Shown piece by piece: positions 2,869 through 18,014 of a DNA stretch of 59,171 nucleotides. Under the pieces are notes generated by a model. The model was not told where the DNA came from. It saw only the letters and a program-made list of their open reading frames with translations, and searched no databases. The position numbers and the translations under genes are program-made. This DNA comes from an uncultured delta proteobacterium (GTDB lineage Bacteria; Desulfobacterota; Binatia; UBA9968), in contig CAVYTU010000003.1 in assembly GCA_963771465.1 (NCBI GenBank), positions 1-59,171 of the forward strand, read 5' to 3'. How positions within the stretch are numbered: the stretch's first letter is position 1; each line of letters starts with the position of its first letter.

Positions 2869-4003
2869 ATGGCATGCGTTAGAAAATGGCGCGACAAGTG
2901 GGTTGTCGATTGGCGCGATCCGGGCGGTAAGCGCTTCATTGAAACCGTAGACGGCGACAGGGATGCGGCGAAAAGACGGCTGGGCGAAATACTCAAGAGC
3001 GGCGAACAGGCGGCGAGCAAGAGGTTAACTTTCCAGGGCTACGCGGAGAGCTGGCTTCAAAATCACGCCAAAGTCACGATCAAACAAAGCACCTATCTGG
3101 AGTATGAGCGGGCTTTGAAGGTGCATCTTTATCCCCTCTTCGGTTCAAAGCCGTTGGTCCGAGTGGCCCGCAAAATGGTGCGCGAGATGATCGCGACCAA
3201 ACAAAAGGCTGGGCTATCGCAATCGACTATCCGCAACATCCTGGCGCCGATGCGGCAAATGTACAATCAAGCGATCGATGACGGCGACGCATACGAAAAT
3301 CCGGCATCGAGAGTGGGAAAATTCAACAAGCGCAAAGATGCGACTGCGCAGCTAAACCCATTGACCCGCGAAGAGGTAAAAACGCTGCTCGATAAAACAC
3401 TGGAGAAAAGCCCGCACTGGTATCCCCTGCTGCTGTGCGCGACACGCACGGGGATGCGCGAGGGCGAACTGATAGGACTCAAGGGAATAGACCTGGACTT
3501 CCGCGGCCAGTTTGTTGAGGTCCAGCGGATTCTCTCCAGGGGCGAGCTTACCACCCCTAAGAACGGCAGGACGCGGCGCGTGGATATGAGCGGCCAGCTA
3601 AAAGACGTGTTGCAGGAGTCTACTAGCCAAGAAAAGAGCGGCGGCGCTGCGAAAAGAGATGGAAAAGCCGGCCGGCGAAAGACGGGACGCGGCGACGGTC
3701 GTTAACGAAGTTATGGAAGATTGGCTTTTCGCAACCCCGGCGCCACGAGCCGGCAGACAACTCGATCCAAGTAACTTGCGGAAGGTCTTTCAAAGCCTGC
3801 TCACAGCGGCCAAGCTTCGCCGTATACGCTTCCATGACCTGCGCCATACCTTTGCTAGCCTATTGATTCAACAGGGCGAGTCCTTGGCGTATGTGCGCGA
3901 CCAGCTAGGCCACCATTCGATTCAGATTACGGTTGACACCTACGGCCATCTTGTACCCGGCGGCAATCGGCAAGCCGTCAATCGTCTGGATGATGTTAAC
4001 TGA
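2869..4003 (+). CDS. int: Tyrosine recombinase/phage-type integrase, frameshifted near 3620
   Basis: ORFs 2869-3705 and 3659-4003 together give TGMREGEL (R), TPKNG (K), HDLRH, LGH and DTYGH (Y); ends 134 bp from the tRNA-Arg 3' end. Confidence 0.9.
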
Positions 4004-8927: not shown

Positions 8928-11386
<2,459 letters not shown>

Positions 11387-13209: not shown

Positions 13210-14832
13210 ATGGAACCCTTTAGCCCGCAATTTTTTATTTTGACCTTGGCCCTGGTTGGCGTGGTGATTATCATCGCGGCGCTTCTATCCGGCTTCATCG
13301 ATCGCAGCGATATTCCTCAAGTCGGTGTTTTTCTCGCGCTCGGCGCGATGCTCGGTCCCGCCGGATTACAACTGCTCGACGTTTCCCTAAATTCACCGAT
13401 CCTGCGAGTCGTTGCGACCGTGAGCCTCGTGCTGGTGCTGTTTACCGACGCGGTCAGTCTCAGCATCGCAGAGATCCGCCGTCATCGCCTTTTGGCGTTT
13501 CTTGTAATCGGGCCTGGCACTTTGCTTTCGGCGACGCTCATCGCGCTTGCGGCATGGATGCTTTTGGATTTTTCGCCGGCGTTGGCGGTGATGATCGGCG
13601 CTGCACTGGCATCGACCGATCCGGTGATGCTGCGCGGTTTGTTGAGACGTCCGGGTCTTCCTGAAACGGTGCGCCTGGCGTTGCGTCTGGAAAGCGGCTT
13701 GAACGATATCGTCTTGCTGCCGATTATTCTCATCGCCATGGCCGTGTTGAGCCACAGCAATCTTTTCGGCGTCGAATCGGCGCGCCTTGCGCTTGAGCTA
13801 TTTCTCCTCGGGCCCGGAGCCGGTGTCACGGTGGGTTTACTGGCGATTGGAGCGCTCGAATTGGTGCGGCGCAAAACCGGCGTGCGCCGCGACTACGAAT
13901 CTTTATACTCGCTGGGCGTGGCGTTTACCGCTTATGCGGCGGCCGAAGCCGTACACGGTAGCGGCTTCTTGGCCGCTTTCTGCGCCGGCTTGACGATTGC
14001 CGCTCTCGACGTGGAACTATGCGACTGCTTTCTCGAATATGGCCAGACCACCGCGGAGATGACGTTGCTCTTCACCTTCATCCTGTTCGGCAGCTCGCTC
14101 ATATGGCAAGGGCTGCTCGTGCTCAACCCAATGACGATACTTTTCGCCGTAGCCGTGGTGTTGATCCGGCCGATCGTGTTCCTCTTGTCGTTGTCGCGCA
14201 CCAAGCTAGAGCGCCGCAGCTGTTTCTTAATCGCCTGGTTCGGACCGCGCGGCCTAAGTTCCTTACTCTTGATCCTCGTGCCGGTATTCGCCAGCGTGCC
14301 AGGCAGCGAGCAGTTGTTTGTCGTTTGCTGCCTCGTCGTGCTGCTCTCGGTGGCACTGCACGGAGGCTCGTTGATGTTACTGGGCCGAACGCCGCCGCCC
14401 GCTTCCTTGAGCACTGATCAAATCGACACGGCAACGCCAAAAGCCAATGACGGCGCGCCGCGTCCAAGCGCCGTCGAGAACGACAGCGATGGTATATCGC
14501 TCGAAGAACTCCGCGCGCTGCAATCCTCCAGCGCTCCCTTGTTGATCGTCGACGTCCGCGCCGAGACCAGTTTCAACTCCAGCCCATTTCAAGCTCAAGG
14601 CGCGCTACGAATACCCGCCGATCAAATCGTCCGCCGAATCGCCGAACTCAACGTGCCGCGCCAAACCTCGATCATTACGTTCTGTGCTTGACCGGACGAA
14701 GCCACCAGCGCCCGTGCGGCGCAGGAACTCAAACGAGCCGGATGGCAGCGCGCGCGGGCGCTGATCGGCGGATGGGACGCTTGGCAAGCCGCCGAACTAC
14801 CGATCGAGAAGAAGCCAAGTCTGGATGTCTGA
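13210..14832 (+). CDS. CPA1/NhaP-type cation:proton antiporter with C-terminal rhodanese domain; probable selenoprotein (TGA at 14689-14691 read as Sec)
   Basis: STDPV, ESGLND and WFGPRG antiporter motifs; rhodanese IVDVR..AQGALRI..ITFCA-TGA-PDEATSARAAQELKRAGWQRARALIGGWDAW continues in frame to a stop at 14830-14832. Confidence 0.85.
14692..14722 (+). promoter_or_regulatory. Candidate bacterial SECIS element
   Basis: GCGCC-CGUGC-GGCGC stem-loop at 14708-14722, starting 17 nt after the UGA, with GU at loop positions 2-3. Confidence 0.55.
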
Positions 14833-14936
14833 TGGCGCGCGACTTGCTCGCTTTAAAATCTAGATTTAGAAAAACGTCATGCCGACTCAGCTGTATTCTC
14901 ACGCTAGAGGGAGTCAGAGGCATTTGCGATGTTATT

Positions 14937-15025
14937 TGGCGGAGGGGGCGAGATTTGAACTCGCGGCCCACGAAGTGGGCGCCGGTTTTCAAGACCGGTG
15001 GATTAAACCGCTCTCCCACCCCTCC
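14937..15025 (-). tRNA. tRNA-Ser(TGA)
   Basis: Reverse complement GGAGGGGTGGGAGAGCGGTTTAATCCACCGGTCT-TGA-AAACCGG with long variable arm, ending GTTCAAATCTCGCCCCCTCCGCCA. Confidence 0.95.
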
Positions 15026-15162: not shown

Positions 15163-15204
15163 TTGACATGATAGCCCTTACCTAGTCATTTTATGACCAT
15201 GACT
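15163..15204 (+). promoter_or_regulatory. Toxin-antitoxin promoter/operator
   Basis: TTGACA at 15163 and palindrome TAGTCAT-ttt-ATGACC-ATGACTA overlapping the antitoxin start. Confidence 0.5.
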
Positions 15205-15450
15205 ACCGTGGATGTAGCGACGTTAAAAGAGAAGCTGAGCTACTACCTGGGCTTGGTTAAAATGGGGCAAGAAGTTGTGGTCACGTCGCATCGCCATCCA
15301 GTTGCCCGGATACTGCGCACTGATACTCCGACCGTGCGTATTGTGGAACCGAGCCGGCCGGTCAAGGATCTTTTGAAGATCAAAGGTGTAAAGCGCCGAC
15401 GCTCAGTTTCCGCTGTGGAAACCCTGCTAAGCGATCGCAGACGCCGTTGA
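15193..15450 (+). CDS. Phd/YefM family antitoxin
   Basis: TVDVATLKEKLSYYLGLVKMGQEVVVTSHRHPVARI pattern; its stop overlaps the toxin start. Confidence 0.88.
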   Translation: MTMTTVDVATLKEKLSYYLGLVKMGQEVVVTSHRHPVARILRTDTPTVRIVEPSRPVKDLLKIKGVKRRRSVSAVETLLSDRRRR

Positions 15451-15895
15451 ATGTCTATCTTCCGTCGTTCTTCGCATCCTATTGTCCTATTTCGAGAACC
15501 CAATCGAATACAATCGAATAGATTCTGGGGGCAGTGGTGATCGCGCCTACAGTAGCGCACTTTGGCGCATCGAAGCTCTTCGTACGGTGGATCGTTTACG
15601 GCTGCTGCATGAAATCACCGATGTCGAAGTGGCTGATCTTGTACGAGATATACAAACCACGCACGACACCTTCGCGATCTGCCCGGTAGATGAGCGAATC
15701 TTGCAACGGGCCAGCGAAACTTTCCCGACCGTTGTTGGCACGCTTGACGCAATCCATCTCGCAACCGCCATCTCGATACGCGAGTCCAGCAATATAGATT
15801 TTCTCCTTACTCATGATTCTCAGCTTGGCACAGCGGCCCGAAGCGTCGGCTTAAACGTCAGTAGTCAATCGTTAATAGACTTCTGTCCAGTCTGA
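15447..15895 (+). CDS. vapC: VapC/PIN-domain toxin; 5' end locally corrupted
   Basis: TTG start overlapping the antitoxin TGA; WRIEA, GTLDAIHLATA, LTHDSQL..AA; short tandem duplications (caatcgaata x2) disrupt the frame at ~15460-15530. Confidence 0.8.
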
Positions 15896-16715
15896 GCGTC
15901 GAGTAATGAAGCTTCAGATGATGCGCTACCTCCACCTGGCTATAACCATGTTCATTGACCGCTTTCGCAATCGTCTGGTCCCGTTTCGATCTCTGTTTGT
16001 CTTTTGCGCCGAACAGTCTCTGAAGCGTCGGCCGGCCGATCAGCCGCTGCCCTCTGGGGATCTCTTGGATCCTCTCATATCCTCTCACATGCCCCTTGAG
16101 CGCTTCGGCGAAGCCTTCCTCCCCCAGTAGACTCTGCGCTTCTAAATTCTCCCATATCGAGGCTCGCCCGATCCCTTCGCTGACAAATTGACGATATTTG
16201 TTCTGCGCCGATCCTCGCCGGTTGCCAAACTGCCCCAGCACTTCGTCGATCATAAGACACCCTGAGGCCGGCGATTGACCGGCGGTGGCTCGATAGCTGC
16301 TCCAGGCCCATTCCCTAGGACCCTTCGCCATGCCTGCAGCCACCGGGTTAAGCACCACGTAGCGACAGACTTCGAGAAAATGGCTGTCTTTCTGAATCAA
16401 AATCCCCTTAAACCGCCCTTGAAACAAATGCCCCACCCGGCGGTGGCGCCGGTTATACGTTTGGGTATACACCCCGTTTAACTGGCGCATCCCTTTGGAC
16501 AAGTTGGCATCGGCGGTCTCCACCACCAGATGGTAATGGTTATCCATCAAACAGTAGGCGTGGCACAGCCAGTGAAATCGCTCGATCACCTGCGCCAGGG
16601 TGTTCAAGAACAACTGACGGTCGGTATCGTCCCTAAAGATCGCCTTGCGTTCGTTGCCCCGGGAGGTGACGTGATACAACGCTCCGTCGTATTCGATCCG
16701 TAATGGCCGCGCCAT
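15858..16715 (-). CDS. REP-associated tyrosine transposase (RAYT, Y1_Tnp) with C-terminal HTH
   Basis: MARPLRIEYDGALYHVTSRGN, YCLMDNHYHL (HUH), GHLFQGRFK, YVVLNPV.AG, WSSY. Confidence 0.9.
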   Translation of the reverse strand: MARPLRIEYDGALYHVTSRGNERKAIFRDDTDRQLFLNTLAQVIERFHWLCHAYCLMDNHYHLVVETADANLSKGMRQLNGVYTQTYNRRHRRVGHLFQGRFKGILIQKDSHFLEVCRYVVLNPVAAGMAKGPREWAWSSYRATAGQSPASGCLMIDEVLGQFGNRRGSAQNKYRQFVSEGIGRASIWENLEAQSLLGEEGFAEALKGHVRGYERIQEIPRGQRLIGRPTLQRLFGAKDKQRSKRDQTIAKAVNEHGYSQVEVAHHLKLHYSTLRLDRSLLTIDY

Positions 16716-16762: not shown

Positions 16763-18014
16763 TGAGCTGGCCCGGGTTTAACGGACAGTTAATTAGGAGA
16801 CAGTTTGACCGATTCGTACTGCATCGGCGTTTGATAATTCAATGACTGATGAATTCGTTTGCGATTGTAAAACAGTTCAATGTACTCGAAGATTTCCGAT
16901 CGAGCCTGATCCCGCGTGTGATAGTCCCGGTGGTGAACGATCTCGTTCTTTAGCGAACTGAAGAAACTTTCAGCGACCGCGTTGTCATAGCAGTTGCCCT
17001 TGCCGCTCATGCTGCGCAGCATCCCGTATTTTTTCAGCAGTTCTACGATAACTCCCACTGGAGTACAAAATCCCCTGGTCGCTGTGGTGAATGAGGCCTG
17101 GCTTGGGCCGGCGTTGCTCCACCGCCATCATCAGGGCCTCATTGGCAAGCTCCTGGTTTGGACGATCCTTCATGGACCAACCCACCACTAAACGGGTATA
17201 TAAGTCGATCATCACGGCCAGGTATAACCAGCCCGAGCGCGTTGGGATGAAGGTTACATCGGTCACCCAGATCTGATCAGGGTAAGCGGCTGTGAAAGGC
17301 CAGCGTAAAAGATTGGGCGGTGCAGGCGCCGTGTTACGGGCCTGATAGGCCAGTCTAAATTTGCGTTTGCGCCGCGCCTCTATCCCTGCCTGCTCGCCTG
17401 AGCCGGGCGACTCGATGCTTTCCGCACACCGTCCCTGATTGCTGTAAGGTCCGCCACGTCTTAGTGGCACCATAAGCCTCTTTCATCTCCAGGTGGATCT
17501 TGCGAATCTTTTTGAGCAGAACACTGATCCTCGGCGGCTGCGCTCACACTCCTCACGCACCTGCCAGTCGTAATACCCACTGCGGCTGACCTGTAACACT
17601 TGGCACATCCGCTGTGACGTGAAACTCTTCGCGGTTAGCTCGCACAAAGGCGTACTTCACTTGAGCTCCTTGGCAAAGTACGCGGCTGCCTTTTTTAAGA
17701 TGTCGCGCTCCTCTTTGACTCGCTCCAACTCCTTGCGCAGTCGAGCCACCTCATCGTTGCTTGCCCGATCCTCGTCCTGATCCAGGGAAAGCTTCTTCGC
17801 CACGCTGACTCATCTGCTCTTTCCACTTGTAGAGCTGATTGCGCCGCACTCCCAGTTCGCGGGCGAGATCTGCTCGGCGGCTTCTGCGAGGTCTCTAGCA
17901 ACCGCACCGCTTCTCGTTTGAACTCGGCGCTAAATCTCTTGCGCTTCGTCATCGAACACCTCCTTCAGGGCTTTTGACCCCTTTCTTGGTGTCCGTCAAA
18001 CCCGGGCTAGCTCA
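16763..18014 (-). mobile_element. IS3-family insertion sequence, 1252 bp
   Basis: 25-bp TIRs TGAGCTGGCCCGGGTTTAACGGACA and TGAGCTAGCCCGGGTTTGACGGACA; OrfA KRFSAEFKREAV; A6G slippery site at 17690-17696; OrfB WVTDVT, HSDQG, GNCYDNAVAESFF; 3-bp flanks acc/gcc; several extra frameshifts. Confidence 0.93.

Follow-up and report, generated by a model that had tools for sequence, protein, structure and literature searches.

How is the in-frame TGA read that interrupts the gene of a predicted cation:proton antiporter in an uncultured delta proteobacterium (Binatia, UBA9968): as a stop signal or as selenocysteine (Sec)? The question is raised by a DNA stretch of 59,171 nucleotides, hereafter the window (contig CAVYTU010000003.1, positions 1 to 59,171, of GenBank assembly GCA_963771465.1), where mechanical calling of open reading frames (ORFs) starts a forward-strand gene at TTG 13180 and ends it, after ...N-V-P-R-Q-T-S-I-I-T-F-C-A, at the TGA in positions 14689–14691. 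A first-pass annotation, made from the letters alone, had proposed that this triplet encodes Sec and that an antiporter is fused here to a rhodanese domain. Both the coordinates and the peptide that it gave proved correct: beyond the TGA another 46 codons follow in frame, PDEATSARAAQELKRAGWQRARALIGGWDAWQAAELPIEKKPSLDV, before a second TGA is met (14830–14832). We set the start at ATG 13210, since the orthologues open with MEPFSPQFF or MEAFSPQFF, and the whole gene (13210–14832, + strand) then has 540 codons including one UGA (Sec494), which forms with C492 and A493 a Cys-x-Sec centre in the predicted active-site loop (14683–14691, +). Judged from sequence comparison, Sec decoding of this UGA and the antiporter–rhodanese architecture of the product seem almost certain, while the best explanation taken as a whole, an intact selenoprotein gene with a proposed regulatory tail, is held to be highly probable.

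A true stop, whether arisen by nonsense mutation in a pseudogene, by assembly error or as the end of a naturally truncated gene, would agree with the fact that mechanical ORF calling and public annotation both terminate at the TGA, and at least one gene of the window is indeed split between frames. What speaks against it is, in the first place, the recurrence of the same triplet. Among 61 related genomes (the source genome and 60 others) all eight that hold the Sec column have TGA in it; these are the source gene, six full-length orthologues (94, 93, 92, 90, 69 and 67% identity) and one fragment at a contig end. In each of the eight, exactly 46 codons without any indel separate the TGA from the final stop, so the frame conserved downstream, on which the proposal depended, does exist. 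Synonymous and non-synonymous codon differences are distributed downstream of the TGA as they are upstream (11/14 versus 13/20 for the orthologue with 69% identity). Two more of the 61 genomes contain only N-terminal fragments ending at contig ends, and two unpublished genomes (G005 and G035) carry no claim here. Among 400 evenly sampled other genomes of the phylum the fusion was found once (G301, 45% identical), where the region reads V-V-L-Y-C-A-TGA-T-H-E-A-T-S-A-R-V-A and likewise contains the LYCAU motif.

A pattern search with one genome per species gave 374 relatives, and the locus counts refer to the best 80 of them, in which every locus spans the whole protein. The Sec column of these 80 is occupied by TGA in 73 cases and by TGC or TGT in seven. 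As labelled, the 80 loci belong to Binatia, Acidobacteriota (Pyrinomonadaceae, Bryobacteraceae), Chloroflexota, Verrucomicrobiota, Planctomycetota, Nitrospirota, Armatimonadota, Gammaproteobacteria and others, with at least eight phyla represented; one cultured acidobacterial isolate (L094) carries the Sec form, and the L-x-G-G-W-x-A-W tail is present in all Sec forms listed. Among the 120 closest database protein clusters, 109 end at F-C-x (107 of them at F-C-A), six are fragments and five are full-length Cys forms with the motif FC[ADT]CP[ND]E (P0079, P0080, P0081, P0085 and P0086). The proteins cut at the TGA are named “cation:proton antiporter” or “NhaP-type antiporter”. Thus the alternation of TGA and Cys codons anticipated by the first-pass annotation is observed in both collections, and standard annotation does truncate the gene, as it had warned. 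In a FastTree phylogeny of 81 proteins, the root of which was not established, the Cys state needs two changes, and one Cys pair sits within a clade of Sec-form Bryobacteraceae. A domain search over all representatives returned mostly multi-rhodanese and standalone proteins and resolved no further Cys-form antiporter fusions, while a region-restricted protein search with the domain returned close relatives only. Taken together, 75 genomes were found to have the TGA followed by a frame of 46 codons and by the hairpin described below; this recurrence is far above chance, and the fusion is a widespread family rather than a peculiarity of the source genome. As a separate observation, one Sec-form copy (L129, TGA within positions 3676–3720) lies on a contig labelled Candidatus Gracilibacteria, bacteria that read TGA as glycine. 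This contig may be mis-binned, since its copy groups with those of Chloroflexaceae in the tree.

The triplet itself was also confirmed in sequencing data. Positions 14689–14691 are covered by metagenome contigs from three DNA runs (X1–X3) and one RNA run (X15) belonging to four studies, several contigs bridge the codon, and no alternative letter is reported there in any of these runs. In run X1 positions 14410–14519 are devoid of coverage and were left out of interpretation.

Evidence for recoding also comes from a hairpin that resembles the bacterial selenocysteine insertion sequence (SECIS). Its core occupies positions 14708–14722 (+) and consists of the 5′ arm GCGCC (14708–14712), the loop CGUGC (14713–14717; consensus CGKGY) and the 3′ arm GGCGC (14718–14722). 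It opens at the 17th base that follows the TGA, exactly as the first-pass annotation had it, which leaves a spacer of 16 nt. Counted from the U of UGA, positions 20–24 pair with positions 30–34, and the apical loop contains G/U; a stem-loop with such a loop shortly downstream of the UGA is expected of a bacterial SECIS. The hairpin lies within codons S500-A-R-A-A504. All five core pairs are formed in 75 of 75 Sec forms, representing 64 distinct 48-mers, and in the formal covariation count 310 of 310 core cells were paired in 62 distinct rows. Double-sided changes were registered at three of the five core pairs (C-G to U-A twice, G-C to A-U once and C-G to U-A once), with G-U intermediates as well. 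None of 500 shuffles scored as high in covariation, and pairing dropped from 91.7% to 23–53% when the partner arm was shifted by 1–3 columns. Two of the compensatory events alter the protein (A-to-V together with A-to-T), while another leaves the encoded residues unchanged in both arms (AGU with GCA). The codons of the stem are practically frozen: Ser is encoded by AGC in 72 of 74 cases, Ala by GCC in 70 of 70, Val by GUG in 65 of 65 and Ala by GCG in 64 of 65. Accordingly low is the third-position entropy of codons +6, +7, +9 and +10 (0–0.18 bit), as compared with 1.6–1.9 bit for other Ala codons in the alignment. In the seven Cys forms the number of core pairs falls to 2, 2, 5, 3, 1, 2 and 4 of five, and since pairing is lost in most of them, the hairpin tracks the TGA and not the protein sequence. 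Based on the pairing, the compensatory changes and the frozen synonymous sites, the element is recognized as a bacterial SECIS-like hairpin. Synonymous variation is also low outside the stem, at codons +2 (AAC in 44 of 47) and +3 (GAA in 67 of 74) in positions 14692–14700, and codon −1 (14686–14688) is nearly always GCU or GCC; this may reflect an effect of the codon context on UGA recoding in addition to that of the hairpin.

The genome also possesses the genes needed for Sec synthesis and insertion, which the first-pass annotation had named as a point to be confirmed. A tRNA-Sec with anticodon tca was detected (76.7 bits), and contig 14 (197319–201637, +) carries, next to one another, selA (614 bits), selB (359 bits) and selD (376 bits); selD has an in-frame TGA of its own, in K-A-A-G-U-A-A-K-L-G. 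Beyond the source genome, selA exceeded the cut-off in all five other Sec-form genomes checked, which represent three phyla as labelled, and in two of five Cys-form genomes checked; in the other three, the completeness of which is unknown, it was not found. With the machinery complete, with no other letter in independent metagenome contigs, and with the same TGA in 75 genomes accompanied by a conserved frame, by a hairpin whose arms covary and by synonymous sites that are frozen, a true stop or an assembly error can in practice be discarded, and we consider any form of this explanation extremely improbable.

What, then, is appended to the antiporter by reading through the UGA? Residues 431–528 (14500–14793, +) form a rhodanese domain, which matches PF00581 with 36.1 bits (gathering threshold 22.2 bits) and is modelled with a predicted local distance difference test score (pLDDT) of about 90. 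The match extends over profile positions 2–102 of 102 only if the TGA is read through. Since the profile spans both sides of the triplet, the TGA falls in the middle of the domain, as was originally supposed. The best NCBIfam match of the tail (residues 422–535) is NF041203, “rhodanese_LYCAU, rhodanese-related (seleno)protein”, and the loop motif, F-C-A-U in this protein, is of the C-A-U type. In the AlphaFold2 model strand 487–491 is followed by loop 492–497 (C-A-U-P-D-E) and helix 498–509. The statement that related domains read YCxCPxExxSA at this place also holds, as C-x-C-x-x-[ED]-x-x-[SA] is present in 71 of the 150 best representatives and orthologues of the Cys form have FC[AD]CPNEETS. 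Among solved structures no C-x-C loop was close enough to fix the catalytic residue.

The transport part looks intact. Residues 22–388 (13273–14373, +) constitute the membrane domain of a Na+/H+ exchanger of the CPA1, NhaP type (PF00999, 128.3 bits against a gathering threshold of 26.2 bits, profile positions 2–369 of 375). NCBIfam equivalogs of K+/H+ antiporters matched far below their cut-offs (NF003716, 141.7/355 bits, and NF003715, 134.7/309, the two best transporter matches of NCBIfam; NF003714, 80.8/471), and the nearest solved structure for residues 12–370 is PaNhaP of Pyrococcus abyssi (4cz8/4cza, E = 8e-11). Three short stretches align with this structure: S-T-D-P at residues 135–138 (13612–13623, +; A-T-D-P in PaNhaP), E-S-G-L-N-D at 161–166 (13690–13707, +; E-S-I-F-N-D) and G-P-R-G at 345–348 (14242–14253, +; G-P-R-G). 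In the 30 fusions aligned, S135, D137, E161, G163, N165 and D166 are invariant, T136 and P138 nearly so, and G-P-R-G with its conserved Arg is invariant or nearly so. By comparison with PaNhaP and MjNhaP1 these stretches are predicted to make up the ion site, and E-S-G-L-N-D corresponds to the “ND” motif of electroneutral CPA1 antiporters. The assignment as an NhaP-like cation:proton antiporter is therefore sustained by the family match and by the three aligned stretches, and the transporter is intact, with exchange activity predicted from its sequence.

According to the AlphaFold2 model built from 30 sequences (pLDDT 79.3; predicted template modelling score 0.69), the transport domain has 13 transmembrane helices. 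The segment between it and the rhodanese domain (residues 397–425; 14398–14484, +), which differs widely in length among orthologues and has pLDDT below 50, is probably a disordered linker. Basic residues, as read from the sequence, concentrate in the loops after helices 3, 5, 7 and 11, and the C-terminus with its rhodanese domain is therefore predicted to be cytoplasmic; the C-terminus of NhaP structures has the same location. At the predicted cytoplasmic end of transmembrane helix 10 (TM10), where the long helix 268–303 begins, lies the motif L-C-[DE]-C-F, with the cysteines C271-D-C273 (14020–14028, +). It was found in 30 of 30 aligned fusions and was absent from the aligned position in 10 of 10 non-fused CPA1 paralogues of related genomes. 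All 120 closest database proteins also contain it, 117 in the scanned stretch and three with shifted length; the best 80 loci were excluded from this count, as they had been retrieved in part by means of that motif. Co-occurrence of the C-D-C motif and the Cys-x-Sec centre in the fusions suggests that the two may work together. When the two domains were docked with four natural Cys-form proteins, the prediction gave no answer (score 0.02) and adds no weight either way.

These comparative data show an intact selenoprotein gene. SelB and tRNA-Sec, directed by the hairpin in positions 14708–14722, almost certainly decode the UGA at 14689–14691 as selenocysteine. The product is then an inner-membrane NhaP-type (CPA1) Na+(K+)/H+ antiporter of 540 residues, in which the 13 helices of the transport domain are followed by a flexible linker and, on the cytoplasmic side, by the rhodanese domain with the centre Cys492-x-Sec494. 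This domain may serve as a regulatory sensor rather than as a free-standing enzyme, a proposal to which we give slightly less than an even chance. Oxidants or sulfane sulfur could turn the Cys-x-Sec centre into a selenenylsulfide or into a persulfide/perselenide adduct, and the modified centre might exchange with C271-D-C273 at the cytoplasmic end of TM10. In that event ion/proton exchange and the cytoplasmic redox state would become coupled.

The same selenoprotein may be understood in another way, namely that the rhodanese domain acts as an enzyme, transferring sulfur or selenium or serving as a reductase, and has no part in regulating transport; the antiporter would hold it at the membrane or provide its ionic environment. 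The fold is above the Pfam threshold, and 45 of the 71 motif-bearing proteins among the best 150 representatives are no longer than 200 residues. Since standalone C-x-C or C-x-U rhodanese proteins of 100–200 residues are common, the domain can work without a transporter. A catalytic role is in line with reviews, in which catalytic redox sites are the usual place of Sec. It accords less well with the loop U-P-[DN]-E-A-T, which is acidic and has none of the basic residues typical of thiosulfate-type active sites, with strict preservation of the fusion over at least eight phyla and with the presence on the transporter of a C-D-C motif specific for the fusions, and we regard it as rather improbable.

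One more supposition is possible: the Cys-x-Sec centre, perhaps together with C271-D-C273, might bind or sense soft metals (Cu, Hg, Cd, Zn) or metalloids, and the antiporter would then answer metal stress. Four chalcogen ligands and an invariant Glu are predicted to lie on one side of the membrane, and a gene of heavy-metal P-type ATPase is located 1.8 kb upstream in the window. According to a review, most predicted transporter selenoproteins are tied to metal or metalloid resistance and Sec can be a metal ligand. The ATPase neighbour is, however, not conserved elsewhere, no flanking cluster extends across phyla, and neither Pfam nor NCBIfam detected a metal-binding family in the domain, which makes a metal site unlikely.

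Location of the Sec codon after the complete transport domain means that termination at the UGA would leave the transporter intact. Hence the codon might act as a selenium-dependent switch between isoforms, with the full-length protein made in the presence of selenium and a transporter of 493 residues without a folded tail in its absence. The prevalence of Sec over Cys (73 versus 7 in the best 80 of 374 relatives) is unusual for a protein in which Cys could simply be substituted, and such a switch is compatible with our preferred explanation. Conservation of the 46-codon tail and of the SECIS element, however, points to selection for read-through, not for termination, and this possibility seems even less likely than metal binding.

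The regulatory proposal gains another dimension from the fact that the antiporter is not the only membrane protein equipped in this way. Two ORFs of the same genome (contig 14, 230095–231066, −; contig 19, 34168–35301, −) combine a DedA protein (VTT domain, PF09335) with a rhodanese domain, and both contain V-L-Y-C-S-TGA-P-N-E-A-[ST]-S-A-R-V-A, a 16-nt spacer and the hairpin GCGCC-CGKGU-GGCGC. Similar ORFs of 335–386 amino acids, each with a single TGA, were seen across the genus, in many of its genomes. As the same domain and SECIS are attached to two DedA proteins, the Cys-x-Sec domain with its built-in SECIS is suggested to be a portable module for membrane transporters, and since the S-A-R-V-A helix of the domain encodes the hairpin, the decoding signal moves together with the domain as a single unit. 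In metagenome contigs depth peaks two- to ten-fold over exactly positions 14689–14722. Many contigs match only this segment, while their flanks are unrelated and the preceding sequence reads ...L-Y-C-T; therefore the combination of TGA and hairpin is common to other genes, and it is a cassette whose nucleotide sequence is conserved between different genes of soil communities. The furthest-reaching version of the regulatory proposal, a portable selenium-dependent sensor cassette on NhaP and DedA proteins driven by the proton-motive force, which would gate the antiporter through selenol–thiol exchange with C-D-C, must be regarded as doubtful. In three further rhodanese-like ORFs of the genome a single in-frame TGA falls on the active-site position or next to it, and these may be additional selenoprotein forms: A-L-Y-U-A-C-P (contig 15, 1030886–1031185, +), V-F-T-U-G-T-G-A-Q-S (contig 15, 847492–847734, −) and D-L-Q-U-D-L-S (contig 13, 191094–191402, +).

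Several circumstances weigh against the explanation that we prefer. As regards decoding, the Cys form L077 also makes all five pairs of the hairpin, using wobble pairs; the folding energy of the 60 nt that follow the UGA is unremarkable (z = −0.51, 54 of 200 shuffles fold as well), so that covariation was relied on in place of thermodynamics; a scan of positions 14600–14850 at E up to 10 gave no match to an Rfam family; and the case for Sec in the protein is comparative throughout. The match to NF041203 (89.6 bits on the protein, 86.2 on the genome) is under the curated cut-off of 115. Alignments with PDB structures are split, placing either C492 or U494 opposite the canonical catalytic Cys, and in the AlphaFold2 model C492 is the first residue of the loop. 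The acidic nature of this loop (P-D-E) fits poorly to an anion-binding sulfurtransferase and gives no positive support for a sensor either. Comparison of flanking ORFs at 81 loci revealed no gene cluster that spans phyla and hence no hint of a pathway, and the suggested regulatory mechanism, including partnership with C-D-C, is drawn only from co-occurrence and predicted topology.

How far does this protein differ from systems already described? With PaNhaP (4cz8/4cz9/4cza) it shares the transport domain, but PaNhaP is devoid of a C-terminal rhodanese domain, of Sec and of the C-D-C motif, residues ~267–283 of our protein being aligned with a longer, unrelated loop. Like the CPA1 K+/H+ antiporters of the NhaP2/CvrA/YcgO type, it has a transport domain (residues 12–393 matched) followed by a cytoplasmic tail, but unlike theirs this tail is a rhodanese bearing Sec; regulation of YcgO is reportedly the subject of a 2026 preprint. 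The DedA–rhodanese C-x-U proteins of the same genome have the motif, TGA, spacer and hairpin of the antiporter fusion, but their membrane partner is PF09335 and not PF00999, and they have no L-C-D-C-F motif. With rhodanese_LYCAU (NF041203), a family known from prediction only, the protein shares the rhodanese fold and the active-site motif [LF]-[YF]-C-[AST]-U-P-x-E. The model of that family has 126 positions, whereas in our case the domain sits at the C-terminus of an antiporter with 13 helices. In recent reviews C-x-U rhodanese-like selenoproteins appear as a predicted family, named “form 3”, NF041203 (2026) or “COG0607 form 2, CxU” (2022), and rhodanese-related selenoproteins have been known since metagenome papers of 2005 and 2007. 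The 2026 review gives as predicted transporter selenoproteins an E1-E2 cation ATPase with UxxC, YeeE/YedE, a mercuric transport protein, the SO_0444 Cu/Zn efflux protein and SaoP. As described there, they resemble our protein in that they serve membrane transport, have Sec in a short Cys/Sec motif and are known from computation only, but differ in fold and in the position of Sec, and none is a cation:proton antiporter or has a rhodanese domain. The words “antiporter” and “exchanger” are absent from the main text of the 2022 and 2026 reviews, and full-text literature searches found no description of an antiporter–rhodanese selenoprotein fusion, although supplementary tables of selenoproteome papers may list the family. 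No description was found either of the family-specific C-D-C motif or of a cassette of TGA and SECIS common with DedA fusions. The first-pass annotation, which knew of no characterised example of this fusion, is supported in its reading of the gene as that of a selenoprotein but has to be corrected for the domain, since selenoproteins of the C-x-U rhodanese type are already catalogued; its label of the tail as a redox or sulfur/selenium-transfer domain names a putative function. What is new here is the architecture in which the catalogued domain occurs.

The surroundings of the gene have their own peculiarities. Conserved flanking clusters are restricted to lineages: peptidase S58 occurs at 15 of the 81 loci, a GntR regulator at 13 and an acyltransferase at 13. 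The heavy-metal P-type ATPase (8928–11386, −) is apparently split over two overlapping frames, with YHS and two HMBD domains in 10562–11386 and the E1-E2 ATPase and HAD domains in 8928–10679, which may be due to a frameshift or to an indel in the assembly. Directly downstream of the antiporter gene there are tRNA-Ser(tga) (14937–15025, −), a weak Phd/YefM-like antitoxin with a PIN-domain toxin (15193–15895, +), an IS200-like transposase (15858–16715, −) and an ORF with an integrase core (16985–17473, −), so that the region bordering the gene on this side looks mobile or variable.

For annotation the finding means that public databases truncate a large family of antiporters from soil bacteria that has a broad phylogenetic spread, and because these proteins are cut at the Sec codon, the rhodanese domain, and with it the fusion, is invisible to domain databases. 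To the selenoproteome it would add a cation:proton antiporter, extending the short list of transporter selenoproteins with a family where Sec forms greatly outnumber Cys forms. A compact cassette of TGA and SECIS reused in different genes should be useful for programs that search for selenoprotein genes, and existence of a cultured acidobacterial carrier of the Sec form makes the prediction testable. As to biology, the fusion may link selenium or redox chemistry with pH and ion homeostasis. If the proposed control is real, it would be the first example in bacteria of ion transport under redox control by selenium, with a wide distribution among soil Acidobacteriota, Binatia and Chloroflexota.

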